Source: Candidatus Poribacteria bacterium (GTDB lineage: Bacteria > Poribacteria > WGA-4E > WGA-3G). Taken from it: a DNA stretch of 64,000 nt. The notes beneath the pieces were generated by a model, which had not been told where the DNA came from, ran no database searches, and was given only the letters and a program-made list of their open reading frames with translations. Every line of letters begins with the position of its first letter. Positions within the stretch are counted from its first letter, which is position 1. Position numbers and translations under genes: made by a program. Below, one piece after another: positions 1,367 to 33,249 of the stretch. The stretch lies in the NCBI GenBank assembly GCA_965242965.1, contig OZ251518.1, positions 64,001 through 128,000 on the forward strand, read 5' to 3'.

Positions 1367-2229
1367 CAACAAAAATCCGCATCGATACGTTACTCGTGCA
1401 GCGCGAACTCGTCGAAAGTCGAGAACAAGCGAAACGGCTTCTCCTCGCGGGTTCCGTTCGTGTCAATGGCGAATCGCTGACGAAACCGGGACACCGCGTC
1501 TCCACCGATGCCGATGTTGTCGTGTTGCATCCACCAAAATATGTCAGCCGCGGCGGCTTCAAGTTGGAAAAGGCACTCCGCGTTTTTGACATTGACGTGC
1601 GCGCCCGGGTCGCGATTGATGTCGGTGCTTCCACGGGCGGCTTCACCGATTGCTTGCTCCAGCACGGCGCGGAGTTCGTTTACGCCATTGACGTTGGGTA
1701 TGGGCAACTCGCGTGGAAACTACGCACACATCCTCGCGTCAAACCGATAGAAAAAACGAACATCCGTGACGTAGAGCCAGAATTGTTCACGGATTGCGCC
1801 GGTAGGAGAGACATTCAAGACAAGGAGTTTTCCCCTACAGTGCTACACCTTGCGGTGATTGACGTTTCGTTTATCTCACTCAGGACGGTGCTGCCAAAGG
1901 TAGTCGCCCTCTGTCCGCAGGATATCGTCGCGCTGGTGAAACCGCAATTTGAAGCTGGACGCGCGCACGTCAAAAAAGGTGGAATTGTGCCTGATAAACA
2001 CGTGCATCTTGAGACACTCAAGAATCTGATCTCGTTTTGTGAGGCGCATCTCAATGTGTGCTTGCAAGGGTTAACCTATTCGCCAATTCACCGTGACATC
2101 GGAAATATTGAATATTTGCTGTGGCTGCAACCGGGGATTCCTCATGGCAAAACTGCATCGGTGGAAGAGGTTGTCCAGACAGCCCATCACCACTTTCAGG
2201 CAGGAAAAGCATCATGCATGACTTCATAA
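1363..2229 (+). CDS. tlyA: TlyA family rRNA methyltransferase (S4 + FtsJ-like)
   Basis: RIDTLLV S4 start, YVSRGGFKL, DVGASTGGFTDCLLQ, DVSFISL, LVKPQFE, GNIEYL; ATGA overlap with dxs, a common gene pair. Confidence 0.93.
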   Translation: MTTKIRIDTLLVQRELVESREQAKRLLLAGSVRVNGESLTKPGHRVSTDADVVVLHPPKYVSRGGFKLEKALRVFDIDVRARVAIDVGASTGGFTDCLLQHGAEFVYAIDVGYGQLAWKLRTHPRVKPIEKTNIRDVEPELFTDCAGRRDIQDKEFSPTVLHLAVIDVSFISLRTVLPKVVALCPQDIVALVKPQFEAGRAHVKKGGIVPDKHVHLETLKNLISFCEAHLNVCLQGLTYSPIHRDIGNIEYLLWLQPGIPHGKTASVEEVVQTAHHHFQAGKASCMTS

Positions 2230-5200: not shown

Positions 5201-8200
5201 TGAACTGATTCTTCCCGCGTTGCGCATGCAAACGGAATTCGGAGATATCCTCGCGTCCACAGCGGATACCGGCGCGAGGGTTCGGTATGAAAACAACTCG
5301 GTGCAGATTGAACCCTTCGCCTTGCAGGTTCATGGGAATAAAATAGATGTGGAGGGAAACATTTCTGTGAATCCAAAAGACATGAACGCTACTCGGCTGA
5401 ATGTCCAACTCCGCGCGCCGCAACTCGCACTCGCGAATTATGAACATCTTATCCGAAAAAGTCTCCCGCCTGAAACGTTCGCGTTGCTAACGGAATCAGT
5501 CTCCCATCCCGATACCGTAGCGCGGGAGCCTGATGGGTTTGCACCGAGACCGGGAGGACTCTCCTACGCCCGCCCCGATACCGTAGTGCGGAGGCCTGTC
5601 CCCCGAAATCCTGATTCTCCTCTCAATACCGTAGCGCGGGGGCCTGTCCCCCGAAATCCTGATTCCTTGGAATGGATAACCGGCACGCTAGACGTTTCCG
5701 TAAACATAGCGGGCAGTCTCGTTGAACCCATCATTACCGTCCAGGCCAAATCCGCCGAAAATCCTGCACGTAATTCTGGAAATCTTGGAAATCCTGCGCA
5801 AATTCGCATCGGCGCGTTCCCGAAACCGATAATTTTGGACGCTATGCAGGCAAGCGTTACCCTAAATCAAGAGACTGTGCGTATCAGCGACGTTGACGTG
5901 AACTGGCAGATAGCGGATGCCACCTATCACGCACACGGCGAGGCAAACTTCCCTAATAGGAAAGCCGTCCCGGGCTCAACAGAACTCCCTATGCTGAAAC
6001 CCCGATTTGCCTTCACTCTCGCCGCAAATCAACTAGAAGTAGCCGATTTTGCTGCTCTGTTCCTTAAACAAGCAAAACCGTCACTCCGCGGCACGCTTTC
6101 CGCAGTAGTGGAGTTGACAGGCAGCGGCATGTCGCCAGAACAAATCTCTGCAACTTGCGAGGTAACCTCCCTATCCGTTACTGCCGGTTCACTGTATTTC
6201 TCAAACCCGGACACCGTGCTTACTGTGGCATCCCGCTATGGTGCGCTGGAGGGTGCGTTCACCTTCAATCTCGCGTCACCACTGCTCGCCGGTTCGGTGA
6301 ACGTCGCCATCGGCGGCACACACACTGCACCGGAAATTGTTGCAACCGGACATGGGGCTCTCCACCATCTCAATTGGCTTGGTGCCATTGATTACCGTGA
6401 TGAACAGATTACCGTCCATCGTGTGGAACTTAGTTCACGTGAGCAGAAAAAGTTAACGCTGACTGGCAGTATCCCCTTCAATCTGGCACTGACATCCGTG
6501 CCGGTAACGGAACGGTTCCTGGATAAACCGGTGGAGGTGCATCTCCGTGGACACGAACTGCCGCTTGCGTTTTTCCCGAAAATGGACGCAGTCTTTTCAA
6601 CGTCCGAAGGTGTTGTTGATATTAACATCGGTATCGTCGGTGCAACACGCTCGCCGCAGCTCAGTGGCGGTGTTTCCGTATTGGCACCACATCTTCAATT
6701 AAAGGGTTTTCCCGAGCCGTTCCGTAATGCAACGCTGCATCTCACGGCAAGTGAGGCCGGACTTGAAAGTCATAACTTTCGTTTTGAGGTGGGTGATGGC
6801 GCGTGCATCGGGCAGCGCGCCCACGTGATGTTAGATGGATTAACGCCGAAGGGACTTACGCTCACCGGATTCCATCTCCACCAATTTCCGCTAGCAGGCA
6901 TCGCGCGGCAGGCTGTTCCATCCGATGCGCTAGGGGCGGTTCGCGGACATGTCACGGCAACTGTGTCGGAATTCCGCATCCCGCTAGATAGTTTTTTCAT
7001 TGAAGCGATGCCCGGTGTGCCTTTTCCACAACTCAGCCGAGTCCCATCGCTCACTGCACTCGCCGAAGTCGCCACGGCATCAGCTGAAATAGAAGAGGTT
7101 CGCTTCGCCTTTAACGCGGCGGTAACTGCCTCAGGCGAACCGATTCAATACGACTTGCGGAATATGGAACCCGTGCCGATAGTGCTAGCAGATGGCAGCG
7201 CGCGCCTTTTGAAGGAATTTTTGATGAAAGATTTTTCCTATTGGCGCGCAGCATTCGGACAGGGGAACGCAGCAGTGGGACAGCCGCTATTTCGCATCAA
7301 AGGCGATTTTGTTGCGCAACTGAACGATGACAAGTTGCCCTCGGAACTTCAAACGCGACTGCAGGAACGCGCGCCGATGGAAAGTTACATACTCACGAAA
7401 AGAGAAGATTTATGGCGGATTTTTGGCGGGGATACAAACGCGCCTGACTTCTGGCTTTGGCAGCGCGTGAAAGCTGATGAGCAGTCTAACGGCCGGATAC
7501 AGATTTTTGAAGAGTCCCCTGCACTCGGCGTGGACAGGGAGGCATCTTTTGGAATCAAGGCAGATTTCTCGCAGGAACTTAATGCTGAGACGGTGCCAGC
7601 AGAACTTCGCAGCCAATTGCAATCCAAAGGGCTTATTCTTCCCGAAACGCTCCACGTCTCTAAAATTGACACGCTATGGCAAGTGCATGATGAAGAAACG
7701 AAGCATCGCTGGATGCTGTCACAAGAAGGGGCAGGCACGAAAGAGCCCGTTCTCTCGGTTTTTGAGCACAGTCTCCAAGTGAGTTTGGATAAAGGGAGCA
7801 CGGTTCAAATGGCGGCATGTGATATCGCGGCGCGTGTCAAAAATCTTGATGTCGCGCCTCTGACAATGGACTGGCCCGAGGAGTATCAAGTCAAAGGGAC
7901 ACTTTCCGCGAGTCTCCAATTGGGAACTACCAACGGTGCGCCTAGGATAACGCTCCGCCGGAAGAAGCCGAGGACTCGGACGCATCTCGACGGCATCCAT
8001 CTCAACGGCGTACCGATTGAACTGAACGGGCGGCTCCGTTATACCGATGGTGCATGGGAACTGACAGAAACCAGACCTTTTCTGCTCGCCATTGAACCCG
8101 AAAATACCATCGCTGTCTTTTTTGTCTGCAAGGCACCGCCAAGCACGGAGAAGGAAACGGGTGGCGATGAAGTTGTGAAGACTTCGGTTCCTGGTCCTTT

Positions 8201-9413
8201 TTGGAAACAGGTTTTTGAAGCACCGGCGCATTTGCTTACAGGGAAACTCACCGGCGGTGTGGATATTCAAATGCAAGACCTGAAAACGCTCCAATTTCTC
8301 ATGCCTACCGTGAGCGATGCTGGCGGCGCGTGCGAAGGCACTGTCCGCCTGAGTGGCACACTAGATACCCCGCAAATTGATGGCACGGTGATGTTCACGA
8401 ATCTCGCGTTGGAGCAGGAAGAAACCGGGCTTGCGTTCCATTCGGTGGAAGGCGCGTGCCAACTCTCCAATGCACAACTCGCGATTACGCGACTCGGCGG
8501 CATCGTGAACGGCGGCGGCTTCTCTGTAACCGGTGATGTATTCTTATGGACAACAGCCGAACGCCTATGGAACCCTATTGAACCGACATTCGCTCTGGAA
8601 TCCACGCTAGCGAAGGCAACGTTCGCTCAAGAAGGACAGTATCATCTCGAAGTGGATTCAGCGACGTTGGGATTTGACGGGCCCATCGCCTCCCCACTCC
8701 TCACCGGCACGGTGAATATCCGCGACGGCGAATATCGTCAAAATTGGGAGAACGTGCGCGAGTGGTTCGCCGGCACCTCGGTTACCGCCACGGAAGTCGC
8801 CTTAGATGCATCCCCACTCCGCGAACTTCAGTTAGACGTGCGCCTCAACGTGCCGAGTTTCTACCTACTCTCCTCGGTGGTAGGCCCGACAGACATCCAC
8901 ATCGCCTGCGACGGCACACTTACAGGGTTGGTGCAACAGCCCATTTTCAAAGGCGATGTCCGAATCCTTGATGGACGGGTGAGTTTCTTGACACAGCAAT
9001 TCGCGTTCGTTGAAGGTTCACGTATCAGCAACGATAGCACCACCGTGTTTGACCCGGGGCTGGACATTCGCCTCCGGACTGTCAACCCGCTTCGGGCAGT
9101 CCCGCTCCGCGACGGTAGCACGGCAGACTTGGATGTGTTGCTCACCTATCAGGGAAACCTGAGCGATGCCGATTTCAATCTGCGCGCGGAACCAGTGAAC
9201 GCCACGACAACCGAATTGCCAACGCAGGAAGAAATCTGGACGTTGCTCTCGCAGCGACTTACGCTACCTTTCGGCGGTGTCACCTTCGGTTTTGAACCCT
9301 ATTCCCGGCATATCAGTGTCGAATATCTATTGCCGCGAAATATGTCGCTTAAGTTTGAACGGGACAAGCACGAGGGATATGGCATTGATTTCCAATTTGA
9401 AGGCCGCTTTTGA
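2214..9413 (+). CDS. Giant TamB/AsmA-like (DUF490-type) envelope protein
   Basis: N-terminal TM anchor, long beta-taco-like repeats, TamB-like C-terminus ending in FQFEGRF, adjacent to an Omp85 gene; start placed at ATG 2214. Confidence 0.75.
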   Translation: MHDFIKRFIRSKILLSAFAFFSIALIGGALFIQSGTVMNWVKQRVEAEIRKQITDTYTVNIGEITGNVLTGVKVDNVVVFPKGGNPSDAAVLSLRQLTLKYNLFALLFRKIEVTALEMSQPRLYAEVDAGGTLNLTELFRLSKESQGAAPRATDQEASGWTFAVQRVRCSKGTLRFLDRQRNLDIAITGVTLSVQGPLNTWNHQGAFSISDGSIAFNDSAMAITRFDADFLIAASGGELTQFQLNVGNHSVLEATARYDGTWHADINVKVDAADVQKFVGDMPHINGIASLHVTAEGTSDTASGTLTATVPSLTIAGLSGHFTPTGGTLSLHDVAIDVDFNTYPVPTFTLNQLQMHVAEGLFQASARVREDSYEGTWHAAGVQLAALPPMEPFSNWDGSLSTTGMFSGKGTDIISTLRLESTLELTDTLLNSIAVEDTSITCTVAASPVSAVSNRAYGRSRELNVVGTLAEADVQLGGFLGEDLHLHATSLRMDKLMDIFGGGPLDGLGELIADISPTGTMKGHIEIPDATFMDIPLGVLAGDFRYQDAQVFVENGLLTKGESRVSIEGTVDVEGELPARFRIFANSCQVAEYRQLLFGNAEYDISGRVTGELFCDGSLSRLDGSGTFAVTEGIAWGMRLDELTLPLEIEDYAIAIPNFQISARGQRAVLNLELATTGDFTLDIRTHAPVQLAELVRAADVPDFPIDANMDIVVRGTTKHEPENGLRQQTSVPTATSPNASRTTKKRTSVPTATSPNASRTTKLDFKLDIRLADITYEGNPLTDATLHGTLVERKKTTGEPDIFQFVGEAFEGASQISGEISTATDSPYRFTVQSRAMPATPILRCLHPMLEVVTGTADSTVEITGTLAALSPKATALFSEGEKPVYPYDVDIAIDTTTLRYRDIPITNSEQIRLHLKDDVWTFADFRLATEMEAASPFVSLTGTFSARDEAMDIVAKSAGFALEPLGTAFGFAIDGTARYEMSMNGTVTAPEVTLELILPALRMQTEFGDILASTADTGARVRYENNSVQIEPFALQVHGNKIDVEGNISVNPKDMNATRLNVQLRAPQLALANYEHLIRKSLPPETFALLTESVSHPDTVAREPDGFAPRPGGLSYARPDTVVRRPVPRNPDSPLNTVARGPVPRNPDSLEWITGTLDVSVNIAGSLVEPIITVQAKSAENPARNSGNLGNPAQIRIGAFPKPIILDAMQASVTLNQETVRISDVDVNWQIADATYHAHGEANFPNRKAVPGSTELPMLKPRFAFTLAANQLEVADFAALFLKQAKPSLRGTLSAVVELTGSGMSPEQISATCEVTSLSVTAGSLYFSNPDTVLTVASRYGALEGAFTFNLASPLLAGSVNVAIGGTHTAPEIVATGHGALHHLNWLGAIDYRDEQITVHRVELSSREQKKLTLTGSIPFNLALTSVPVTERFLDKPVEVHLRGHELPLAFFPKMDAVFSTSEGVVDINIGIVGATRSPQLSGGVSVLAPHLQLKGFPEPFRNATLHLTASEAGLESHNFRFEVGDGACIGQRAHVMLDGLTPKGLTLTGFHLHQFPLAGIARQAVPSDALGAVRGHVTATVSEFRIPLDSFFIEAMPGVPFPQLSRVPSLTALAEVATASAEIEEVRFAFNAAVTASGEPIQYDLRNMEPVPIVLADGSARLLKEFLMKDFSYWRAAFGQGNAAVGQPLFRIKGDFVAQLNDDKLPSELQTRLQERAPMESYILTKREDLWRIFGGDTNAPDFWLWQRVKADEQSNGRIQIFEESPALGVDREASFGIKADFSQELNAETVPAELRSQLQSKGLILPETLHVSKIDTLWQVHDEETKHRWMLSQEGAGTKEPVLSVFEHSLQVSLDKGSTVQMAACDIAARVKNLDVAPLTMDWPEEYQVKGTLSASLQLGTTNGAPRITLRRKKPRTRTHLDGIHLNGVPIELNGRLRYTDGAWELTETRPFLLAIEPENTIAVFFVCKAPPSTEKETGGDEVVKTSVPGPFWKQVFEAPAHLLTGKLTGGVDIQMQDLKTLQFLMPTVSDAGGACEGTVRLSGTLDTPQIDGTVMFTNLALEQEETGLAFHSVEGACQLSNAQLAITRLGGIVNGGGFSVTGDVFLWTTAERLWNPIEPTFALESTLAKATFAQEGQYHLEVDSATLGFDGPIASPLLTGTVNIRDGEYRQNWENVREWFAGTSVTATEVALDASPLRELQLDVRLNVPSFYLLSSVVGPTDIHIACDGTLTGLVQQPIFKGDVRILDGRVSFLTQQFAFVEGSRISNDSTTVFDPGLDIRLRTVNPLRAVPLRDGSTADLDVLLTYQGNLSDADFNLRAEPVNATTTELPTQEEIWTLLSQRLTLPFGGVTFGFEPYSRHISVEYLLPRNMSLKFERDKHEGYGIDFQFEGRF
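4401..4502 (+). repeat. 54-bp in-frame tandem duplication within tamB-like gene (TSVPTATSPNASRTTK x2)
   Basis: ACGTCAGTGCCCACAGCCAC at 4401 and 4455. Confidence 0.9.
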
Positions 9414-9786: not shown

Positions 9787-9888
9787 GGGCGATTTGCAAT
9801 TGCAACCAGAAATCGGGCCAGGAATCTGGTATAATCCTGCCAATCCTGCTTGCGTGCCAAACCACAACCAGAGACAAGGAGACTCGCC

Positions 9889-12800
9889 GTGAACCAAAAC
9901 TATAATCCTGGAAATCTTGGAAATCTTGGAAATCCTGCTCCGGTTTTGATGCTGTGCTTTTTCTTCTTCACCCTCTGCGCCGGTGTCACGCACGCAGTGC
10001 CGGTAGTGCATATTACCTATCAACTCGATTCTGTCCCCGTGACAGACGAAGAAACCCTCGCGATGCTGCGTGCACGAATGCATCTCAGCGTCGGTGAACC
10101 CTTCTCGCGCCACGCTGTCCACCGTAGCGTTGTCGCGCTTTACGCTTCGGCGCAGTTTTCACAAGTTACCGTTGATGCGATAGAAACACTAGAGGGTGTC
10201 TCGCTTCTCTTTTCGCTCAAGGCTGTGTTGAAGATTGCGGGCATTACGATATCCAACGTGCCAGAAGAACTGCGCTTACCACTGAAAGCAGTCCTACAGT
10301 TGCAAGCCGGCGGTGCGTATCATCCGGCTGTTGCGCAGCGGGATGTCGTCAGCATCAAAAACGTGTGCGCGGCGTATGGGTATTTTGACGCGTCCGCCGC
10401 GGCGTTCTTCTCACCCACCCCTGGCTCAAAGATAACCGGCAATTTGACATACCGTGTCACTCTTGGCGCGCCTTCGCTGATTCAAACGGTTCGGGTTGAG
10501 GAAAATACGGACAGCGAAACACAATCCCTCACCGATGCCTTGCGCACAAGTCGGCCCGGCGAGCCGTATCGTCACACTGCCGTCGAACGAGATGCCGCGG
10601 CACTTGTCTCGCTGTATCGGGAAAGGGGTTACCTTACAGCAACGGTTCGCCACACCTTCACACCAGCAACAGGGATGCTGCAATTCTTTGTCGATGCCGG
10701 CAAACGATTCGTTTTTTCATATCTTCGCACCGAGAACTTAGATAGCGAAACGTCATTGCAAACAACGAAAAAACCGGCGGATATTGATGAACAGGAGTTG
10801 CGTAACCTGGTTGCTTCCTCGCGGCAGTCGCCGTTTCTGTGGCAACAGCGCGTCAAGGCATATTTTGAATCAAAAGGTTACGACAGCACACAGGTAGAGA
10901 TTGAAGAAAATCAGGAGCGGATAACGTTGACGATTCGTCCGGGGACGCGCTACGTCGTCACGCGCGTGACTTTTTCTGGAAACCTCGCCTTTTCCGAATC
11001 CGACTTGCTGCGGGAGATGAAGACGAAGCCGCAGGGATTCTTCGCGAAACGCTTCCTGAAACGTTTTTTCAATGCACAGACGCTTGAAACCGACATTGAC
11101 AGGCTCACTATTCTCTATCGCAACGAGGGTTATCCGGGTGTCCGAATAGAGACGCGAACCGAGAAGGATGCAACCGCCGGTGAAATCGCTATCCACGTGC
11201 AGATTGCTGCATCGGCGCGTGAAGTCATCTATCGGTGCGAATTCAACGGGAATAGTGCGTTAACGGAGGATACGCTGCTTGCAGCCCTGCAAGAAGCCGG
11301 ATTCTCGCCGCCGCAGCCGAATGCGCGATTCGTTCAGAACGATTACCGGAACGCTGTCCTTCGCGCCTATCAGGAACGCGGGTTTATGGATGTGGCAGTG
11401 AACGTTCGCTACGTCGCAAAAAACACAGAACCGGTTTTCCAAATTAAAGGTGATGCCGCGGCAGAAATCAGTGCCGCCCTCCACACCGGCACGCTCTCGG
11501 AGGCACTCCATCACCATTTTGAACAGGCAACGGGCATGCGGTTACCAGCGGTATCTCTCGCAACGCAAATCGACACGCTCTGGAGTTTACAAGATACAGC
11601 AGGGATTGCGCGCTACACCCTCCAAATTGACAACGTCATTGACAATGTCACTGTCGGCGATACAGAGAGCGACGTGTCCGCACAGAAACCGTCAGCAAGC
11701 GCAACGAAAATCCTCTCGGTTTTCGAGCATCACCTCCTTGCGTTTGACATCTCGGAAGGACAGCCTGTTCATTTCGGCACCTTCACGTTTCTCGGCGATG
11801 CTGGCGTGAAAGAAGAGGTGCTGACGCGAGAAGTGAAGCACCTAGGAGGCACGCTCTGGACACCGGCGAAATTGAGTCAAACTGTGCGGAATCTTTACAA
11901 TACCGGGATTTTTCGGCGGGTTGATGCACAGCCGAGCGCGGAGAATGTGTCAGGCATTCGCGCGAAGAACGTAGACGGCGACAACGGCGATATTGGAGAC
12001 GAGGCGAAAGATGCGCTTGCCTCAGAAACGCTTGTCAAACGGAACGTTTTCGTTCAGGTAGAAAAGCAAAAACCGGGCAGCTATCGCGCCGGGCTCGGCT
12101 ATAGCACGACAGACGGCTTTCGCACCACGCTCGCGATGCAACACCGCAACCTCTACCAACGGAATATCGGCGTTTCACTCCGCGGCAGGGCCGGACTCCG
12201 AGCTGGCACACTCGGGTACCTGCTGGAAAGCAGATTGACGAAACCGTGGCTGTTTGGGAGAAACCGCGGCACGCTGCAAGTCTCCGAAAGAAACCTTGAA
12301 GAAGATGATAACGTCCGCGCTCTCCAAAGCAGCGTGACGCTCAGTCGGGAACTCTCTAACGAACTGCTCCTCCAATTCCAATACAATTACAGGTTCTTGC
12401 GCCAAGCCACGCCGATGTTGAACGAACAAGAACGCCTCGCTCTACAACAGATTGAAACCGAACCAGATCTTCGCACTACCGTCAGTAGCCTGCGGCTTTC
12501 TTGGACGTATGACAGCAGCCTCCCCTACCTCGCGCCGACATCAGGGATGCACAACGAGGTGACATTGGAATACGCCGGTGGATTCCTGCAAGGCGAAACC
12601 AGTTTTATTAAGACGACGACAGACTTCCGACTCTATCGGCAACTCTTCACCGCCGGGCCAACCGTAGCAACGGCTTTGCGCCTCGGTGTCACCAACGGAT
12701 TGCGTGCGAATCGCGGCGCGGAGCTCATTTCGTTTGAACGGTTCTGGGCCGGCGGCAGCACGACGGTGCGGGGATACGCTGAACGCGGCCTCGGGCCGCT

Positions 12801-13089
12801 GGATAGCGCAGGCAACCACCGCGGCGATATTCAATTCATCTTCAACACCGAATTGCGCTTTCCTATCTACAAACCGATTCGGGGCGTGCTTTTCTTTGAT
12901 ACAGGCAACGTCTGGCGTTCGCTGGACACTTTCGACTTTATCCTCACGGAATTGCCGGCGGCTATCGGCGCGGGCATTCGTCTGCAGTGGGGTGCTTTCA
13001 CGGGCGGCGTGGATTACGCTGTGCCACTACGCGATATCCCCAGTGCCGCTGCTACTCCCCTCTACTGGCGACTCGGCAGCACTTTTTAG
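9889..13089 (+). CDS. Omp85 family outer membrane protein (BamA/TamA-like), multiple POTRA + beta-barrel
   Basis: POTRA-like segments (VTFSGNLAFSESDL), barrel motif RFWAGGSTTVRGY, FFDTGNVW, C-terminal Phe; GTG start with AGGAG RBS. Confidence 0.88.
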   Translation: MNQNYNPGNLGNLGNPAPVLMLCFFFFTLCAGVTHAVPVVHITYQLDSVPVTDEETLAMLRARMHLSVGEPFSRHAVHRSVVALYASAQFSQVTVDAIETLEGVSLLFSLKAVLKIAGITISNVPEELRLPLKAVLQLQAGGAYHPAVAQRDVVSIKNVCAAYGYFDASAAAFFSPTPGSKITGNLTYRVTLGAPSLIQTVRVEENTDSETQSLTDALRTSRPGEPYRHTAVERDAAALVSLYRERGYLTATVRHTFTPATGMLQFFVDAGKRFVFSYLRTENLDSETSLQTTKKPADIDEQELRNLVASSRQSPFLWQQRVKAYFESKGYDSTQVEIEENQERITLTIRPGTRYVVTRVTFSGNLAFSESDLLREMKTKPQGFFAKRFLKRFFNAQTLETDIDRLTILYRNEGYPGVRIETRTEKDATAGEIAIHVQIAASAREVIYRCEFNGNSALTEDTLLAALQEAGFSPPQPNARFVQNDYRNAVLRAYQERGFMDVAVNVRYVAKNTEPVFQIKGDAAAEISAALHTGTLSEALHHHFEQATGMRLPAVSLATQIDTLWSLQDTAGIARYTLQIDNVIDNVTVGDTESDVSAQKPSASATKILSVFEHHLLAFDISEGQPVHFGTFTFLGDAGVKEEVLTREVKHLGGTLWTPAKLSQTVRNLYNTGIFRRVDAQPSAENVSGIRAKNVDGDNGDIGDEAKDALASETLVKRNVFVQVEKQKPGSYRAGLGYSTTDGFRTTLAMQHRNLYQRNIGVSLRGRAGLRAGTLGYLLESRLTKPWLFGRNRGTLQVSERNLEEDDNVRALQSSVTLSRELSNELLLQFQYNYRFLRQATPMLNEQERLALQQIETEPDLRTTVSSLRLSWTYDSSLPYLAPTSGMHNEVTLEYAGGFLQGETSFIKTTTDFRLYRQLFTAGPTVATALRLGVTNGLRANRGAELISFERFWAGGSTTVRGYAERGLGPLDSAGNHRGDIQFIFNTELRFPIYKPIRGVLFFDTGNVWRSLDTFDFILTELPAAIGAGIRLQWGAFTGGVDYAVPLRDIPSAAATPLYWRLGSTF

Positions 13090-13916: not shown

Positions 13917-15533
13917 CTACTTCCGAATGACCATCTTCCGGGTTGCGGAGAAATCATCCGCGGTCAACGTATAGAAATAAACACCGCTGGCAACAGGCTC
14001 ACCCGCCGCATTCCGGCCATCCCAATAGGCTGCGCGAGAACGGTTTTGATAGATGCCCGCCGGGACCTGACCGAGGTCGAGTGCGCGGACGAGTTTTCCG
14101 TCTGCCGAATAAATAGAGACTTTCACCCCAGCGGGTTTTGCCAACTGATACGGTATCCATGTCTCTGGGTTAAACGGATTTGGATAATTCGCAAGCAGGA
14201 CTGTCTCTTTCGGCTGTGCTTCGACGCGCGTTAATGCCGCTAAGAGCCGTTCCAGCGCGGCGATTCCCGCCGGGTCTGCGTTCGCTGCCTTTGCATCACG
14301 GAGCCACCGCTGCACATCTGCTGCCTGTAGGCTCCCGGTCTTGATGTTTGCCTGTGTTAATGCAGGCGCACCTGCAGCATCCACCGCCTCTGCCACAGCA
14401 ATGAAATCGTCAACATCAACCTTCCCATCGTTATTAACATCCGCCCTCCGGTTTGCACCGGCACCGACGGTTTTCCCGTAGTTTCTGGCCACCTCTACAA
14501 GATCATTGACGTTGACTTTACCATTCCCCGTGACATCCACTGTGAGCAATCGCCACAAACCGATGTCTTGCTGAAGAGGCACCTTGCCCGCGAGAATCTG
14601 CCCATTCGGTGAAAACGCTAAGCCCGCCGACGACCCCCCTCCGTATCCCGTGAGCGCGGTTTTGAGGGCACCGGTGTTCGGATTCCAAAGGCGGAGGGTG
14701 CCGTGCGTTGCCCCCCTCTGGCGACCCGCACTCACCAACGTCTCCCCGTTCGGATGGAACGCTAACGAAATAATATATTGGCGAGGTACCTGCAGCACGT
14801 GCCGGGTGGTGTGCGTATCGGGATTCCAGAGGCGGATGGTTTTGTCGTGACTTCCACTCGCGAGGATGCGGCCATCCGGACTCCACGCCACGCAGTTGAC
14901 CGACTCCGTATGCCCCCGCAGCACGGCGAAGTTGATGCCGTTGCTTGGATTCCACAACCGCACCGTGCCATCATTACTCGCACTCGCTAGCACCCTACCA
15001 TCTGGACTCCACGCGACCGATCTGACAGCTTCCGTGTGCCCCCGCAGTGTGCGCACATGCCGCAGGTTGTTGATGTCACCCACATCCCAGATACGGATAG
15101 TCTTGTCACCACTCGCACTCGCCAGCACATAACTGTTCAGCTTGAAGGCGAGGCTGATGACAACGTCTGTATGCCCCGCCACCGAGCCGCGCCAGTCGCC
15201 ATCGGAGCTATAGCGCATCCGAATCTTATGATTATCTACCCCACCACCATAGGCGATGAAGTGGGGGTTCTGCGAAGGGAGCGCAACGGCGTAGACCTCA
15301 TTCCCGACATCCTGTTCCCAGCGTTGTGTGCCGGTGGTGACATTCCAGGCGCGGAGAGTGTTGTCATAACTCCCACTGATTAGCGTCCCGTTATCCTTGA
15401 AGACTACCACCCTGACATAATGCGTGTGTCCCGTCAAGGTATCGGTGTGGACGTATTGTTGTGCGGTGGCGGTCGTCACTGCCATCGCTGCTATTAACAC
15501 TAGTGTTAAGGTTAAAACCGTTAATTTTCTCAT
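13917..15533 (-). CDS. Secreted WD40-repeat protein with dockerin-like EF-hand pair and FlgD/T9SS-like C-terminal domain
   Basis: Signal peptide MRKLTVLTL, GH...W(D/N) repeats, DVNNDGKVDVDD, LLANYPNPFNPETWIPYQL...SGVYFY...RKMVIRK. Confidence 0.88.
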   Translation of the reverse strand: MRKLTVLTLTLVLIAAMAVTTATAQQYVHTDTLTGHTHYVRVVVFKDNGTLISGSYDNTLRAWNVTTGTQRWEQDVGNEVYAVALPSQNPHFIAYGGGVDNHKIRMRYSSDGDWRGSVAGHTDVVISLAFKLNSYVLASASGDKTIRIWDVGDINNLRHVRTLRGHTEAVRSVAWSPDGRVLASASNDGTVRLWNPSNGINFAVLRGHTESVNCVAWSPDGRILASGSHDKTIRLWNPDTHTTRHVLQVPRQYIISLAFHPNGETLVSAGRQRGATHGTLRLWNPNTGALKTALTGYGGGSSAGLAFSPNGQILAGKVPLQQDIGLWRLLTVDVTGNGKVNVNDLVEVARNYGKTVGAGANRRADVNNDGKVDVDDFIAVAEAVDAAGAPALTQANIKTGSLQAADVQRWLRDAKAANADPAGIAALERLLAALTRVEAQPKETVLLANYPNPFNPETWIPYQLAKPAGVKVSIYSADGKLVRALDLGQVPAGIYQNRSRAAYWDGRNAAGEPVASGVYFYTLTADDFSATRKMVIRK

Positions 15534-15577
15534 GATAAAAAAATTCCTTTGCCCGCCATTAATAGCGAGCATTCGTA

Positions 15578-16072
15578 TCAATCCGCTTCCCCCAGATGCC
15601 GAATCTCAAAAGCGTAAACGCGCATCTTCACGTAACCGCTCTTCTTATACTCGGCGTGACTCTCACATCTGATGAGAAGCCCAGTAAACTCGTATTTGTG
15701 CCCCCGTTCGTAGGTCTCGGGGGGATTCGGTACATCTAGCGGATACACGTCAACCACATTTCCTTCTAGCGTTATCTTCCGAACCTGTTTCGTTCGGAAG
15801 GAGGTCTCAACAAGTCCAGCCACACCTGTGAAACGGACAAACCGCCCCACATACTGGTCCCAGTTCTGCTGCAGCTCTCGGAAGCGCATCGGCTTGATCC
15901 AAACGTGCTCCTCACCCCGTCCCCGTGCAAAGAGCCTCACCTGAACGGGAACCCCATTCAAAGTGCTTGAAAACCCCTGAGAGAAATGAACAATCGGCTC
16001 TCTTGCAACGAGGATTGCACTAACGCTTAAAACCATCAGCGCAATGACGATGCAAAATTTTCTGCAGGTCAT
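15578..16072 (-). CDS. Hypothetical exported protein, possible OB-fold
   Basis: Signal-like N-terminus, GAGG RBS, YVGRFVRFTG motif resembling OB-fold proteins. Confidence 0.6.
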   Translation of the reverse strand: MTCRKFCIVIALMVLSVSAILVAREPIVHFSQGFSSTLNGVPVQVRLFARGRGEEHVWIKPMRFRELQQNWDQYVGRFVRFTGVAGLVETSFRTKQVRKITLEGNVVDVYPLDVPNPPETYERGHKYEFTGLLIRCESHAEYKKSGYVKMRVYAFEIRHLGEAD

Positions 16073-16467
16073 TCAAAATCCTCTTTCGTTTGTGATAAAA
16101 ACCGCGTTAAACCGCGCGGTTTTCGTCTATTCCGTTGTCTGAATCAGGATTTCCAAGATTCAAGGATTTCCAAGATGAGGGATTGCTTGTCCTCGTAAAT
16201 CCCTCTGGCGCGTTAGGAATGATCTCCATATCGCAATTTCTACGAAGGTCAGCCTTGGCGAAGCGATGCGCTCCTAATCCTGTAAATCCTATCATCTTGT
16301 GAATCCTGATTCAGACAGTTAATTGCAATTCGTCTCCAGACAACGTGTCTGGGGTTGCGGCGGGAGGTTGCAGTCGCCTTTCGGCGATGCAGTGCCTCCC
16401 GTAAACGTGGAAACATTCCAAAATTCACGCGCCCGGTGTCAAACACTAGGCGATACAGGAAGAGAGT

Positions 16468-17106
16468 TCAGTCCTGGCCCCTTGAGAGATCCATGGAATT
16501 AAATCCACGAATCTTGATATCGTCATCCCCCTTGAACTGGACATACTTCTCTTTATAGAGTTTGAATAGGCACAGTTGAATAGGGATAACCTCTGAAGCG
16601 TTGATTGGACCGAGCACTCCTGCCTTCTCTAAGGCAGCAACAACAAGTTCGGAACAGAAGAATTTCTCAAAATCCTCCCGATTCGCAGTGGGGCCTAAGG
16701 CATCAAGGATACCATCTATGGCAGCTTTGACGGCTTGGCCGTAATCGTAGGGTTTCCCCTCTTGTTCAAGCAAAAAATCAATGAGTTTTTGCTTATCCAA
16801 TTTGCAGCGGGCTTCGTCACTCAAAGGCAACCACCAGAGTTCGCCTTCATAAGCCTCTTCAAGCCGGCTCAGTCGGCTGAATTGAACTCCTTCAGCGGTA
16901 GCCTCTGCAACTCGGACGCGCCTATTGGGTTGTGCGGTATCATCTACCACGAGTTCGCTGTGGAGGACAATGCCGACATGTGACACATTACTGTTCGTAA
17001 ACAACTTTATCGCGTCGGAGACAGGCTTTTTGCCGGCAAAAGCGATGATATCTCCGGGTTGCATCTTATCTCTGATACTCGCGTACGTACCTCGTTTCCA
17101 GGACAC
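16468..17106 (-). CDS. Permuted papain-like NlpC/P60 amidase (YiiX/YaeF-like, C92)
   Basis: QPGDIIAF, SHVGIV (His), GKPYDY, FFCSELV (Cys after His = permuted order); GTG start after GAGGAG. Confidence 0.85.
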   Translation of the reverse strand: MSWKRGTYASIRDKMQPGDIIAFAGKKPVSDAIKLFTNSNVSHVGIVLHSELVVDDTAQPNRRVRVAEATAEGVQFSRLSRLEEAYEGELWWLPLSDEARCKLDKQKLIDFLLEQEGKPYDYGQAVKAAIDGILDALGPTANREDFEKFFCSELVVAALEKAGVLGPINASEVIPIQLCLFKLYKEKYVQFKGDDDIKIRGFNSMDLSRGQD

Positions 17107-17124
17107 TTTTTTCTCCTCTCTTGT

Positions 17125-17208
17125 GCAGAACGAACCGAATTGAGTCAGCGACACGATGGGCAGCATTGCCCATCGCAGCGTCGCTGGTTTCAACGGTGTT
17201 CGTTAGAC
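17125..17208 (-). other. attC-like imperfect palindrome (candidate integron cassette recombination site)
   Basis: Minus strand GTCTAAC ... long imperfect stem ... GTTCTGC, 84 bp, followed directly by RBS and start of the YiiX-like gene. Confidence 0.45.
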
Positions 17209-17452: not shown

Positions 17453-17543
17453 GCCGCAACTCTCGCACGGTCCCAACCCCACCGGGCCGCCGAAAAATGC
17501 TCGCGGCGTAGGGTGAAGTGACGCGAGACCGTAGGTTGGTGGC
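17453..17543 (-). other. Long imperfect hairpin just after 137-aa ORF stop (attC-like or RNA structure)
   Basis: CAAC/GTTG ends, ACGGTCTC/GGGACCGT, ACTTCACC/GGTGGGGT, GCCGC/GCGGC. Confidence 0.35.
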
Positions 17544-17550
17544 CTTCAAC

Positions 17551-17964
17551 CTAGTCTTCAGCGAGGGAGTTTGTCAAAGCTAATTCCACTTTGACCCAGT
17601 CTCCCCCGAATGGTTCCCTATTATACAACGAGATCGTGCGGCTGACAGGGTGACCTCCTCGAGGAACTCTGAAACTGATAGTCTTATCATCCGCAAGATC
17701 TTCAGTATTTTCAGACGTTCCCTCATAAAATCGCACTGCGACCTCCATATTAACATGGCCATCGTCAACTAAGCGTCCGGTCATGTCAACTTCAACGCGG
17801 CACTCATCACCCCATCTGACGTGTGGGATATCAAAGTTATCAATAGGGTTGCTACCATCAAAAATTCTTTCTCTCTTATAGGCGCGATGAACGGGCACAT
17901 CTTTTTTGTACCATTCATCATCGATGCCTGTGATAATAATCGTGGCAAAAACGCGTCTTGCCAT
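17551..17964 (-). CDS. Hypothetical beta-rich protein (FYEGTSENTEDL motif)
   Basis: Strong RBS AAGGAG, protein-like composition, 137 aa. Confidence 0.7.
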   Translation of the reverse strand: MARRVFATIIITGIDDEWYKKDVPVHRAYKRERIFDGSNPIDNFDIPHVRWGDECRVEVDMTGRLVDDGHVNMEVAVRFYEGTSENTEDLADDKTISFRVPRGGHPVSRTISLYNREPFGGDWVKVELALTNSLAED

Positions 17965-18126
17965 TTTATGGCTCCTTCTTTAATTTGTTTGGTAGAACAC
18001 AGATGTCCCACCTACTTATGGGTGCTTAATTTGAGAAACTAAGCAGGATTCAGGTTAAAGACACCTGCCACTATCCGGACACTATTCCAACACTACCATC
18101 CCCTCCATTTGCCGCCATCAAGAATA

Positions 18127-18328
18127 GACAGCGACAGAAATCCGCACCACCAAACGCGGCGCACGGAAATCTCGTATGGACAAACAGGGAGAATAACAAG
18201 GGAAACGGGTGCAACGGGAAATATGGCAGGGAAATGCATCGGGCCAGTCCCGATGCAACGAAAGTAACCCGCCACGCAAGAATGCGTGCGGGGTCAAAGA
18301 CAACAGGACGACAAAAGTCGCCGCTGTC
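18127..18328 (-). ncRNA. Candidate structured RNA domain (multibranch, four UCCC motifs)
   Basis: Closing helix GACAGCGGC/GTCGCTGTC, three internal hairpins; G-U pairs favour the minus strand; lies downstream of triple promoter. Confidence 0.4.
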
Positions 18329-18345
18329 AAGTGAATAAGATTTGC

Positions 18346-18519
18346 TTAACGCCTGTGGGTGTCGGGGGGGGTCGAGCCTCCCCTCTGGACATTAAGCCGA
18401 ACGGGAACTCGTGACGGCGCGACAACGGGCATAGACGCACGGCAAACGTGCATCTCTCGGTGCCCAAGCAGGTCTACGGTGACCTCGGTAGCAATGGAAA
18501 AATCAATTCGCTGGTTCAC
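18346..18519 (-). CDS. Small 57-aa ORF (possible leader peptide)
   Basis: AGAGGA RBS then GTG; MNQRIDFSIATEVTVDLLGHREMHVC...QRGGSTPPDTHRR; first ORF after the promoters. Confidence 0.4.
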   Translation of the reverse strand: MNQRIDFSIATEVTVDLLGHREMHVCRASMPVVAPSRVPVRLNVQRGGSTPPDTHRR

Positions 18520-18591
18520 GGTATCGTTCCTCTGTTCGGTTTCGGTTTCGCGGTGGCGCATTTTTTCGCGCGTATCACCGCGTTTGCATTA

Positions 18592-18766
18592 ATGATACAC
18601 GAACATGCAATAAATGTCAAACATTTTTTTGCGAAAAATCGTGGAAATGTTGACAATTAACCACATTCTACATGAATTTCGGTTTTTTGTCAACGTTTTT
18701 CTGCGGAAAATCGTGAAAAATGTTTAAAACTGATTTTATTTTAGCAAATGTCACGTTTTTTGTCAA
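18592..18766 (-). promoter_or_regulatory. Three tandem sigma70 promoters at 73-bp periodicity
   Basis: TTGACA-N17-TAAAAT (18766-18738), TTGACA-N17-TAGAAT (18693-18665), TTGACA-N17-TATCAT (18620-18592). Confidence 0.8.
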
Positions 18767-18796
18767 GGTTATTGCGCGAAAAAAAACGCTGCTGCT

Positions 18797-19480
18797 ACCG
18801 TAGCGTGGGGGCCTGTCCCCCGCGATGCTAATTGTCTGAAGCAGGATTTCCAAGATTAGCAGGATTTGCAGGATGAAGAGTTGTTCGCCTTGACACGTCT
18901 ATGGGGACATCAAAGAATGCTCTTCAGGTCCGTAGGACCTGCATGTCTATAGAAAAGTAGATCTGCCACCGTTTTCAAGGTCCGTTAGGACCTTAATGGA
19001 AATGGCACAAGCGAGTCAAAGCACATTAAGGTCCTACAGACCTTAGGTTCATCGTGATGCGAGGTGCTATAGACATTAAGGTCTTACAGACCTAAAGAAA
19101 CATTTCGGCGCAATACCCGCCTAATCCTGAAAATCTTGAAAATCTTGTAAATCCTGCTCCAGACCGAGGCACGGCGAGGGACAGGCCCTCGCCCTACGGT
19201 GGCAGGAGAATTTTGGCACGGCGAGGGAAACCCGCTCGCATGCGCGTGTGGCATGCGAGGGCCCAAGCCCTACGGTTCGACGGCGCGGTTTGGATAGCCA
19301 CGAAATAAAAAGCATATTAAGGTCCTACAGACCTTAGCCATCTTCGCATCACATTGCTCTATAGACATTAAGGTCCTACAGCCCTAAAGAGACGTTTCGG
19401 CGCGATACCCTCCTAATCTTGCTAATCTTGTAAATCTTGGAAATCCTGCTCATATCTTGCCTAATCTTGTAAATCCTACT
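18797..19480. repeat. Composite REP / 9-mer / CTATAGACAT-AGGTCC repeat cluster
   Basis: 18797-19094 closely matches 13394-13690 in the same orientation; further partial copy 19314-19386. Confidence 0.9.
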
Positions 19481-28232: not shown

Positions 28233-31200
28233 TTATTTTACAACGACAATTTTGCCAACTTTATTCCGGCGCGTTTCGCCTTGGCGCGCGGTGAATTTAT
28301 AGAGATACACACCGTTCGCAAGCGGTTCACCATCGGCATCCAACCCATCGTAGTGGAATTCGTTGTAGGAGACAGCCGCGTCAAGTGTGTCAATCGCTGT
28401 GATGAGGCGGCCGGTGAGGGTATAAATTTTTAGCGTTACCTCGTCCGCGCTCTCTGTCAGGTAATAGGCGAAATCGGTGCCGCGCCCGGGCGTAAACGGG
28501 TTCGGGAAATTCGCAATGTTCTTAATCTCAAACTCTCCTGCGACGGTGGCTGTCCTGCCTGTGGATGCCGGGTTCCCATTTGCATCCTGCGCTTGCAACC
28601 GAATGGCATATTCACCCGCCTCTAAAATGGGCGTATAGGTTATCAACAGCACATTGCTATTGACAGGCGAAGCGGCGATGACATATTCGTCTTGCGGCAC
28701 GCGCTCGCTGTTTTTGGTGAGGACGATGTTCTCCGGACGCGTGTCAACGCCGTTGGCATCCTCAATCCGTGCAGAAATCGTGGGCGTATCGGAAATATAA
28801 TCGCCATCAATGAAGCCTTGGTTTTCAACAGTCAACTCCAGCGAAGGTGGACGTGAATCGGCGTGGGACAGCAGCGCGAAGGTGCCGGGCAACTCAACTT
28901 GGGTTGAGAGTGTCTCTTCGCTGCGCGTTTCATCGCCAATGCGAATCCAATTCCCAGTCCTCTCGTCCAGCATATAGATGTGGTGAATATCTGTCACCGA
29001 CGATGCCTCGGAAAAATGGAATGTAGCAGTCGCCGCAAATCCGTTCTGCGCGTCTAAACCGAGTTGATAAGCCATAGGGGCTGCTGAAGCAGGAACGATA
29101 TCGGGTTGATTGGTAATCGTCACCTCTTTCCGGTCAAGCGTCATAAGCGTCGGTGTTTGAATGCTGCCTGGCGTAAGTGAGAGCCGCAACGTGCCATCGC
29201 CACTCACGATTTCCCGCTGCTCCGGCGTGAGCAGAATCCAATTGCTAGAGAACCTTCGGGTGGCGGTGTTATTCCGCTCTCTGCGTTCAATGATAACCCC
29301 TTTTGGCAGTTCTGCCGATGGCATGTCCACAACTACCGTGACGAGATAATTGCCGGGGGCGGGTTGCCACCGCACACTCGCCTCCACTTCACCACCCGGC
29401 GGCACTTCTGCCAACATCTGAACTGCACCAATCGGTGTGGCGTTTTGGAGATCTTCTTCAAGGAGCACTGTCTCTTCAGTCTCCTCCGTTGCTGTTGTTT
29501 GGAGAAATTGGACCGGGACGTTTCGCACAAGCGCAGAACCGAAGTTCACAATCTTCGCCGAAAGCGTGAAGGGGGATGCGTCATCAACATCTGAACTTGC
29601 CCAGACGATGGTTTGCTCTAAAACACTCAAATCTACGTTGCGCTCACCAAACTCATAACTCTCTATCTCGGTTTGGAGGCTCCGGCCGTTCTGCAGCGTG
29701 ACTTCTAGATAGTAATCAATTAACTCCCGTTCCGGATAGCCGGGAATGGGCTGCTCGGTGCGATAGGTTGCACCCCTGTGCCGCACGACAGGAATTGTCT
29801 CAAATTCCAGTCCGTCTAAACTCCAAAACAGCGTCAGCGAATCAAGCGCGTTCTCGTCTTTTACCTCGCCGTAAAAATGCACGGGCTGGTTGGGTTCAAC
29901 TGGGTAAGGCGAGATGCGGATGTCAGTAATGTATCGCTCAAGCGCAGTATAACTGACAGAACCGACGGTATCTTCCTCCGCATTCCACGCGTAAGCGCGC
30001 ACGTCGCCCTCATCAAATTGGCTATTTGCGGGGAGAGATACGGCTACAGCGAACTTGCCATTGACAACAGAAACTGTCTCTTGCTCCGGTGGCGCGACAG
30101 GGAGTTCATTGCCACGTGGGATTGCTGTTGGAACAACGGTAACTTCAGCCTGTCCGTCAAAATTGCGGTTGGATAGCGTGCCGGTCACGGATACCGAATC
30201 CTCGCCTACATCGGCGGTTACTGCAATCTGGGGGAACGGTAACCGGAGCCGAGTCGCCGGATCTCCGAAGAGGGTGAAGACTTCCGCTAAGTCGAAATAG
30301 TGCGGCGCGTTAATGACAAATTGGGTTTTCGCCTGCGCAAGAATGGCACCGAGGTGCCTTACCGGTGTCGATTCCGCAAAAATCGCATCAAAAATCTCTC
30401 TGTTAAGCACGTAGTCGCCCTCAAGCAGCCCGATGCTAGTCCCGCCGATGACTGCAATTGCCCCACCATTCTGCGAACGGAGCAGCTCCTCGGCGAGGCA
30501 GCTCTGATTGCCATCAAAAAAGCCGGTGAAGCACGTCATGCTGATAACAAAGGGGAGTTGTTCAATATTGGTGAGGTTCTGCTCGGGGTCCTCCAGGTCT
30601 AACATGCGGCTCGATGCCCAGATACCGCCGCCACCGTGTCCGATGTAGTTGACGAGGATGGCACCGTCGTTGAATCCATCAATCACTTGTGTTGCGATGG
30701 GCGAACGGACGCGCTCGTCGAAGGCTTGCCCCTCGTTCGTCGGCGCGAAGATGTCCTTCACTTCATAAGTCGCCGCGAGATTGTTTCTGCCGATGAGCCA
30801 ATTGGTTTGGGTATGAAATATCCATTCCGTGCCAGCGAGCATGAGGAGCCGTTTTTGCCACGGCCCGATTTCCGCTTGTGTCTCATAATTGATGGCTCGC
30901 TCAACGAATACCCGCGCATCCACCCGATTCCTCGCCGGCATTCTGCCGATGAACATGTCAGGAAAATTGTCATCCCCGCGGAAGGTGACGAACTGATGGT
31001 CTGACGCTGTTGCACCGTATCCCGGAATCTGCACTTGTATGGTGGGGACAAAACTGAGTTCGTTCTTCAAGTCAACGTGCGTGTCGCCGACGAGTAGGAC
31101 ATAGGTCGGCGCGGGCGGCTGCCAGTTTTCGTAGGCATATTTCAGGAATTCGCGAATCGCATACGGATTAAGGATGCCGTGACTAAACTCATCGTAAATA

Positions 31201-33215: not shown

Positions 33216-33249
33216 AGCCTGAGTCAACTTTTTCCGTAGGGGCATCCTA

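Follow-up and report, generated by a model that had tools for sequence, protein, structure and literature searches.

The DNA considered here is a 64,000-nucleotide (nt) stretch of a Candidatus Poribacteria genome (assembly GCA_965242965.1, contig OZ251518.1, positions 64,001 to 128,000), hereafter the window, whose numbering is used throughout. A preliminary description, made from the letters alone, had singled out positions 18127-18585 of the minus strand as a candidate dual-function RNA, in which a small open reading frame (ORF) is followed by a multibranched domain exposing four UCCC motifs. That observation is real but was read too locally, missing a multi-copy repeat, a homopolymeric C tract and the lack of conservation of the proposed closing stem. 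The element outreaches the flagged coordinates, running on the minus strand from 18826 to ~18050, and is one copy of a cassette of ~650 bp that is present in ~20 copies in this genome. Its features, and those of the putative operon behind it, are listed below; HP1, HP2 and HP3 denote three local hairpins, P1, P2 and P3 the promoters, and uORF the small ORF upstream of the operon.

18797-18826, minus strand: 5' boundary of the cassette, a GC hairpin GCGGGGGACAGGCCCCC(A/G)C plus GCTACGG, common to an abundant repeat resembling repetitive extragenic palindromes (REP-like); from the alignment of 18 copies
18738-18766, minus strand: promoter P1, TTGACA-17-TAAAAT with TG before the -10 box, 11/12 sigma70-like, kept in the copy alignment
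18665-18693, minus strand: promoter P2, TTGACA-17-TAGAAT, 11/12 sigma70-like, within a 73-bp repeat module
18592-18620, minus strand: promoter P3, TTGACA-17-TATCAT, 11/12 sigma70-like, closest to the leader and kept in all aligned copies
18549-18582, minus strand: nested 5'-terminal stem-loop, CGCGGUG..GCGC..GCGC..CACCGCG, with arms 18582-18576 and 18555-18549 in the minimum free energy (MFE) fold
18526-18532, minus strand: Shine-Dalgarno sequence GAGGAAC of the uORF, near-invariant as GAGGAAC(G/A)A in 30 copies from four genomes
18346-18519, minus strand: uORF, GTG start, 57 codons plus TAA, with a ribosome-binding site (RBS), kept open among copies
18364-18371, minus strand: homopolymeric C8 tract CCCCCCCC in the uORF, separated from the end of the uORF by 15 nt and the stop codon
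18299-18328, minus strand: HP1, GACAGCGGCGAC / GUCGUC..GUUGUC, helices 88-89% paired, with A-U changed to G-C at one pair in 7 of 30 copies
18265-18296, minus strand: HP2, CCCGCACGCA / UGCGU.GCGGG, 99.7% of cells paired, two pairs with compensatory change
18235-18257, minus strand: HP3, UGCAUCGGG / CCCGAUGCA, then a U-rich tail, 95.9% paired, terminator-like in most copies
18176-18232, minus strand: pyrimidine-rich tract with four UCCC (family consensus UUUCC(C/G) repeats), an accessory module downstream of the conserved core
18144-18162 and 18111-18135, minus strand: two local hairpins of the MFE fold
18064-18108, minus strand: purine-rich tract, predicted partner of the pyrimidine tract when the leader is folded to its end, the pairing enclosing the two small hairpins
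17965-18063, minus strand: locus-specific end of the leader, without similarity between copies, with the first gene's Shine-Dalgarno sequence AAGGAG at 17977-17972
17551-17964, minus strand: first gene of the operon, 137 amino acids, no Pfam family
16468-17193, minus strand: C92 peptidase-like protein, putative operon
15578-16072, minus strand: ORF of 164 amino acids, putative operon
13917-15581, minus strand: WD40 protein of 554 amino acids, putative operon, the remainder of which spans 13917-17193

The 841 bases from 17960 to 18800 recur at 17 further sites in the genome, with matched lengths of 350-760 bases; identity is 81-91% at 16 sites and 69% at the remaining one. A profile of the uORF peptide and a model of the three hairpins each give 20 own-genome matches. 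In blastn searches against the own genome the copies share a sharp 5' edge at 18826/18825, whereas their 3' edges are ragged, falling at 18251, 18234, ~18180, 18096 and 18047 when 17500-19000 is the query. For a survey of neighbouring genes, 18 copies were excised together with 8 kb of downstream sequence. Every copy faces co-directional ORFs, and the conserved block lies directly upstream of a gene with its own Shine-Dalgarno sequence; in several copies the block stops just after HP3 and the Shine-Dalgarno sequence of the next gene follows within 50-150 nt. Because the block always precedes a co-directional gene, with a Shine-Dalgarno sequence close behind, we conclude that it behaves as a promoter plus 5' leader and not as a separate gene. 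The preliminary description had spoken of a small RNA (sRNA) or a long regulatory leader. The position of the copies upstream of genes, along with the conserved ORF and hairpins, upholds the second part of that proposal, and the leader very probably acts in cis; the stand-alone UCCC-bearing sRNA did not find support.

The three promoters lie in repeat modules of 72/73 bp, upstream of the flagged segment as had been described, and a transcript start near 18585 is inferred from P3. The 5' stem-loop that would follow was also correctly recognised, and the copy alignment contains the versions CGCGGUG/CACCGCG and CGUGGUG/CACCACG as well as G-U variants. Between the last -10 box and the first long gene, which begins at 17964, there are 628 nt, in agreement with the ~620 nt previously given. 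Comparison with shuffled sequences, proposed earlier as a check, showed that 18127-18585 folds moderately better than expected (z = -2.97; 1 of 100 shuffles as good) and that 17950-18345 folds much better than this (z = -6.24; 0 of 100). An inverted repeat of 16 nt and 88% complementarity, of the GCG-T8-CGCGC type (18789-18774 and 18571-18556), brackets the three-promoter block, as in invertible promoters. However, no reversed promoter block was found and all matches in four genomes are collinear, so that an inverton was rejected in spite of the flanking repeats. On the 5' side the cassette borders on repetitive DNA: REP-like matches over 18874-18797 occur more than 50 times, and the two short REP-like families of ~75-80 nt, at 18997-18920 and 18874-18797, have well over a hundred chromosomal occurrences in total. 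The intergenic region further upstream (18797-18997 and 19018-19451) also contains 93-nt direct repeats and several TAAGGTCCTACAGACCTTA palindromes.

Alignments were made of 18 own-genome copies and of 32 copies from four genomes. They define a conserved core that comprises the promoter or promoters, the 5' stem-loop, the RBS with the small ORF, and HP1-HP3. RNAalifold predicts exactly these three hairpins, with compensatory change at 8 of 27 pairs. When the three-hairpin structure was scored on 30 copies, 94.2% of 927 cells could pair, as opposed to 28-46% with slid partners, and two-sided compensatory change was present at 8 of 31 pairs against 3.1 in shuffles, a level that none of 500 shuffles reached. 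HP2 shows many more changed pairs in distant relatives. Together with its U-rich tail, HP3 is flagged as terminator-like in copy L023 and not in the window copy. Hairpins of the preliminary description are borne out at 18296-18265 and 18257-18235, and there is a hairpin at 18162-18144. The same cannot be said of the stem that was thought to close the whole domain, GACAGCGGC/GTCGCTGTC: only 62.8% of its cells pair across 30 copies and all nine positions do so in only three of them. Since each half belongs to a better-supported local hairpin and the pairing is poorly kept, we rejected this stem. An alternative pairing of the 5' arm of HP1 with 18135-18127 is perfect in only 3 of 30 copies. Further towards the genes, pair counts on 16 copies were mostly 11-16 for the hairpin at 18162-18144 and 6-14 for that at 18135-18111, and RNAalifold applied to the long 3' part of the leader returned only HP3 and one weak helix.

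The four UCCC motifs lie at 18232, 18219, 18203 and 18190 with the spacing of 13/16/13 that had been reported, and neither strand of the 64-kb window contains another cluster of at least four TCCC within 46 nt. In the chromosome there are 74 such clusters. The preliminary description drew its functional idea from these motifs and took the tract to be unpaired. Neither their conservation nor their exposure was supported by the analysis. All four are kept in only 2 of 30 copies, roughly one third of copies lack the tract or carry other sequence in its place, and a fold that takes in the whole leader predicts the tract to be paired. The best-kept helix joins CCUGCCA (18230-18224) to UGGCAGG (18070-18064), with 8-13 of 16 copies able to pair at its seven positions and no compensatory change in the 16-copy alignment. 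No Rfam family reached its gathering score in the window, and 17500-19400 gave only chance-level hits (E at least 0.65). We also considered whether the tract could be a Rho-loading (rut) site. Its C/G ratio of 2.1-2.2 exceeds the 95th percentile of the window background (1.78) and stays below the 99th (2.38). An equally skewed G-rich stretch follows and can pair with it, and the rut reading is kept as a minor possibility only.

The GTG-initiated uORF with its GAGGAAC sequence, noted previously as a 57-residue ORF, was recovered at the expected place. It is open over 52-65 codons in 27 of the 30 copies with a recognisable start; one of the others carries a 1-nt insertion (43 codons) and two read on for more than 150 codons. 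Stop counts and the ratio of non-synonymous to synonymous polymorphism (pN/pS) were obtained from 30 sequences, after the truncated copy c00 and the frameshifted copy c09 had been dropped and three read-through copies cut to 58 codons. The uORF frame contains no stop, compared with 7 and 10 stop positions in the other frames (many in only 1-5 sequences), and the number of one-step paths to a stop is similar across frames (13, 16 and 16). The indels, of 3, 12 and 15 nt, leave the frame intact. Diversity at the three codon positions is 0.241, 0.247 and 0.286, and the region shows RNA-like paired changes, for example GGGCA..UGCCC in place of GGGCC..GGCCC. The small ORF is kept open, but there is little constraint on its amino acids. 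We consider that it is probably translated, and we read the pattern of change as suggesting that its translation would matter more than its product. Sponge Poribacteria possess srp genes for precursors of ribosomally synthesised and post-translationally modified peptides, and a preprint describes these precursors as highly expressed (10.1101/2023.06.09.544420). The uORF is not one of them, as those are 252-bp genes of the NHLP type with an LCCCW core (same source).

Within the uORF, a pure run of C7-C11 occupies the tract site in 29 of 30 copies tested. In 212 long ORFs of the genome, proline is written CCC in 21% of cases and CCG in 48%; that the tract is pure CCC in spite of this indicates that the homopolymer is a feature of the nucleotide sequence. 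Its length determines where the frame ends. In the window copy, which has C8, the frame closes at +18, leaving 17 nt to HP1. Loss of one C moves the stop of the window copy to +37, with its TGA at the foot of HP1, and gain of one C opens the frame for 293 nt, through all of the hairpins, to a point 107 nt before the gene. This pattern of +18, +37 and long frames was found in 13 of 17 own-genome copies tested; of 26 copies, 20 have 11-142 nt between the end of the long frame and the next gene start. Two sister copies in G004, a genome of another genus, differ by one C and in their state, L048 having C8 and the short form and L033 having C9 and 153 codons. Among 142 public protein clusters with the core motif, 108 end no more than 12 residues past the prolines and 34 read on. 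When 43 public variants were read, extension was mostly by a change of frame right after the prolines and in some cases by a lost stop. Other variants share one tail but have PP, PPP or PPPP, which corresponds to tract changes in steps of three Cs.

Stops are depleted in the leaders as a whole (146 in total against 178 +/- 9, a value not reached in any of 300 dinucleotide-preserving shuffles), and a frame with at most one stop exists in 16 of 21 leaders against 11.4 +/- 2.1 expected (3 of 300 such shuffles). Among metagenome contigs of the Joint Genome Institute we obtained no match to the pattern of the tract flanks and none to the HP2 core. The contigs of four runs lie on 17900-18900 as short, repeat-broken pieces that leave 17900-18103 uncovered; they contain no C-tract indel at 10% or above and no strand-changing joint, and they do not bear on expression, tract variation or inversion.

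By DNA similarity the cassette is present in 4 of 41 related genomes. Of 176 genomes of the phylum, the peptide profile identifies it in 4; one further match lies inside a 508-residue frame and is taken as chance. A DNA pattern scan of genome contigs found three loci. A covariance model of the three hairpins reached further, matching 60 of the 112 genomes of the family, with all six genera represented; the scores are 30-51 bits in the wider family and 55-113 in the four cassette genomes, and the E-values of this model are rough. We inspected seven of the weaker matches. HP1-HP3 and the UAUUUUUGU linker are kept in all seven with many pairs changed, a near-consensus promoter lies 238-273 nt upstream in five, and six contain a small ORF in which a C7-C12 run is followed, a few codons later, by a stop in GTTAA; three of these six ORFs are in the long state. 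In six of the seven, a gene whose product has a hydrophobic, signal- or lipoprotein-like N-terminus follows ~70-300 nt behind; no such gene was evident behind the seventh, L073.

A comparable association is seen genome-wide. In the own genome, 45 of 118 C-runs of at least 8 have a near-consensus promoter on the same strand within 330 nt upstream, whereas a downstream control gave only 4. About 34 of 61 promoter-linked C-runs (at least 7) are found inside an ORF of ~45-60 codons, with 15-16 nt between the run and the end of the ORF, and 28 of 52 downstream genes encode a signal-peptide-like N-terminus by a crude hydrophobicity rule, compared with 18% of 400 background ORFs. Related leaders in the own genome number ~50-60. 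Outside the 650-bp family, many promoter-linked poly-C small ORFs stand before paralogous proteins of ~1100-1290 residues with signal-peptide-like N-termini, for example at C1:453531, 2734618, 1165573 and 5563922 (plus strand).

The proteins encoded behind the cassette copies are mostly unrelated to one another, the exception being a large single-linkage cluster of repeat and dockerin proteins, mostly of the WD40 type, which is found behind most copies. Seven of ten sampled downstream products matched Pfam (TPR, WD40, tyrosinase, animal-haem-peroxidase-like, FGE-sulfatase with dockerin, trypsin-like, and LRR with dockerin and Por_Secre_tail) and three did not. We conclude that the cassette probably controls genes for secreted proteins. 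By the same crude rule the 137-residue product of the first gene in the window has a hydrophobic N-terminus. A tree of 30 copies contains two deep clades, each represented in three genomes; the larger groups by genome, and 16 of 17 own copies fall in one clade. Grouping by genome indicates within-genome expansion or gene conversion, and the mosaic variants of the peptide agree with this. Two copies stand 2.5 kb apart in the own genome (C1:29256-29534 and 31621-32017), one truncated after ~380 nt and the other diverged to ~62% identity. Elsewhere in the window there are very long ORFs at 2121-9413 (2430 codons) and 28233-33245 (1670 codons), and 9850-13089 encodes an unusually long Omp85/POTRA (BamA-like) protein of 1079 residues.

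Taking these results together, we tentatively favour, at a little under an even chance, the reading that the flagged stretch is the transcribed 5' leader of one cassette copy, acting in cis on the operon for the 137-residue protein, the C92-like peptidase and the WD40 protein, and that the frame of the uORF, set by the length of its C tract, governs expression of these genes. The position at which ribosomes stop on the uORF would decide whether HP1-HP3 can form, HP3 being terminator-like, and the state of the hairpins would in turn set the amount of transcription or translation that the genes receive. If the C tract is prone to slippage, it could serve as a heritable stochastic switch, a contingency locus, for secreted proteins; that it acts as a length switch at all is a possibility about which we are far from certain. 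A genome-wide extension, in which ~50-60 leaders per Poribacteria genome form a contingency regulon and tract length determines whether translation halts ahead of a conserved three-hairpin attenuator or continues across it, seems to us rather doubtful. Rho is present in the genome. Antitermination of the RfaH/LoaP type was considered and rejected: there is a single gene with a NusG domain, and hence no specialised paralogue is available.

Several observations count against the favoured reading. HP3 is a weak terminator in the window copy, where it is not flagged as one. Of the 17 own copies tested, 14 share the +18 state, another two end at +11 or +3, and the long frame is read in none of them, a uniformity that looks more like a fixed design than like switching. 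The differences in tract length are known between paralogues and between assemblies, not within one strain, and the variation from assembly to assembly could in part be homopolymer error of long reads. In the non-homologous part of the leaders alone, 17 of 21 have a frame with at most one stop against 14.9 expected, which is not significant (43 of 300 shuffles); the copies are kin and so are not independent in the long-frame shuffle tests, and the case for selection for a long frame is weak. Finally, the amino-acid constraint on the uORF is slight (pN/pS 0.83, with 0.92 and 0.89 in the shifted frames), and its openness could therefore partly ride on nucleotide conservation.

The main rival accepts the same leader and makes it a physiological attenuator, in which ribosomes pause or arrest on the Pro-Pro(-Pro) five codons before the stop, depending on EF-P, prolyl-tRNA or a ligand as in TnaC, SpeFL and MgtL, and thereby govern Rho access or hairpin formation; the C run would merely be how the prolines are written. 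The uniform frame state of most own-genome copies suits this idea, as do the fixed tract-to-stop spacing (15-16 nt in ~34 of the 61 promoter-linked runs), the presence of PP or PPP in 126 of 142 public variants, the N-terminus M-N/Q-x-R-I, which is conserved and common to distant relatives, the existence of Rho in the genome, and the C-rich, G-poor tract that follows. It does not account for proline being written only as CCC when CCG is preferred, which points to a nucleotide-level feature, for a peptide that is mosaic and weakly constrained, or for the change of frame at the tract in about a quarter of public variants, and we regard it as unlikely. Clustering of the copies by genome, the fixed 5' and ragged 3' edges and the setting among REP-like repeats would also fit a propagated promoter cassette without any switch, of a kind for which the concept of reused promoters has been published (PMC3575422). 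Strong promoters, an mRNA-stabilising 5' hairpin and an RBS would then be what is spread or homogenised within genomes, and the uORF, C run and hairpins would be passengers or stabilisers. Passengers would decay, however, and six genera have preserved the hairpin domain, with compensatory changes, while the ORF stays open and the tract-to-stop distance is retained in diverged subfamilies; this alternative appears quite unlikely.

A different view again takes the 57-residue peptide itself to be the product, for instance a small regulator or a peptide that is secreted or modified; the RNA features would then be of secondary importance. The ORF is open with a strong RBS, public assemblies contain 148 unnamed, Pfam-less protein clusters of it called as genes (29-114 residues, and another 30 that are longer), and residues H25, L43 and P52 are invariant or nearly so. 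This is hard to reconcile with the pN/pS of 0.83, with an AlphaFold2 model from 36 peptide variants that has only one N-terminal helix (predicted local distance difference test score, pLDDT, 61; predicted template-modelling score, pTM, 0.23), with the lack of a Pfam family or signal peptide, or with ~20 near-identical copies each tied to a different operon, and a peptide product is improbable. The stand-alone dual-function sRNA, whose unpaired UCCC motifs would pair in trans with Shine-Dalgarno sequences, can draw on the four motifs, which are locally unusual, and on the prospect that, if HP3 terminates, ~20 strong-promoter copies would yield an abundant RNA of ~350 nt. But the UCCC tract lies downstream of HP3, its motifs are rarely kept and the tract itself is often missing, the predicted fold has it paired, Rfam gives no match, and a gene stands behind every copy; we therefore hold this proposal to be highly improbable. 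The cis-acting leader with a frame set by its C tract remains the reading that we prefer.

Sponge symbionts are believed to deal with their host through secreted proteins of eukaryote-like types, such as WD40, LRR and TPR, and these bacteria are uncultured. A shared, strongly promoted leader before ~20 operons marks a candidate regulon, which the ~50-60 related leaders may widen, and it does so through a compact control element of ~350 nt. If the C tract is a switch, it would represent an unusual route to phase variation, by way of an upstream ORF and not of the gene or promoter, and were the contingency regulon real it would let a sponge symbiont vary its secreted eukaryote-like proteins and giant surface proteins between on and off in a combinatorial, heritable way. 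The hairpin model, with its matches in 60 of 112 family genomes, offers a handle for annotating such leaders, and the element explains many 'hypothetical 57-aa proteins' in sponge metagenomes. In the literature searched at the level of titles and abstracts, supplements aside, we did not find a description of this element or of a homopolymer inside a leader ORF.

Among known systems, tnaC, speFL and mgtL are leader-peptide attenuators that act through ribosome position or arrest. The cassette resembles them in having a short ORF with an RBS in a long 5' leader, proline codons near the end of that ORF, and structured RNA with a C-rich stretch between ORF and genes in a genome with Rho. It differs in being multi-copy (~20 copies, ~50-60 related leaders) and in having prolines encoded by a pure C homopolymer; as to terminator/antiterminator structures, the leader offers three conserved hairpins, the third of them terminator-like, and an alternative pairing of the 5' arm of HP1 that is, as noted, perfect in very few copies. 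RsaE/RoxS and RNAIII are RNAs with C-rich seeds, and the window copy shares with them UCCC motifs in a pyrimidine-rich stretch. In contrast to those sRNAs, the motifs here are not conserved, are not predicted to lie in loops, are probably not part of an independent transcript and have no Rfam match.

Putative mobile promoters, described as highly similar promoter regions before non-homologous genes in one genome (PMC3575422), provide a definition that the cassette fits, in that a homologous promoter region stands upstream of non-homologous genes; here, however, the shared block, at ~350-750 nt, greatly exceeds a promoter in length and contains a conserved ORF and RNA domain found across six genera. 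The 5'-untranslated region of hmw1A in Haemophilus influenzae carries heptamer repeats that form a hairpin and are processed by RNase III, with no small ORF described (PMC12721329). As is proposed for the cassette, the repeat is transcribed and acts in cis, and a pyrimidine arm pairs with a G-rich arm (same source); the counterpart in the window would be the UUUCC-rich tract at 18230-18176, predicted to pair with 18108-18064. The candidate for variation in the cassette is, by contrast, a C homopolymer inside an ORF. Simple-sequence contingency loci with homopolymeric tracts are documented in Neisseria, Haemophilus, Campylobacter and Helicobacter (PMC5084427). The cassette is like them in having a homopolymer of 7-12 nt (C8 in the window, C7-C12 elsewhere) at many loci per genome, where a change of one base alters the frame, and in its link to genes for secreted or surface proteins. 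It is unlike them in that the tract lies in an upstream small ORF, not in the regulated gene or a promoter spacer, and any effect on the gene must therefore pass through translation of the leader. On these comparisons the element would work like a leader-peptide attenuator and possibly like a contingency locus.

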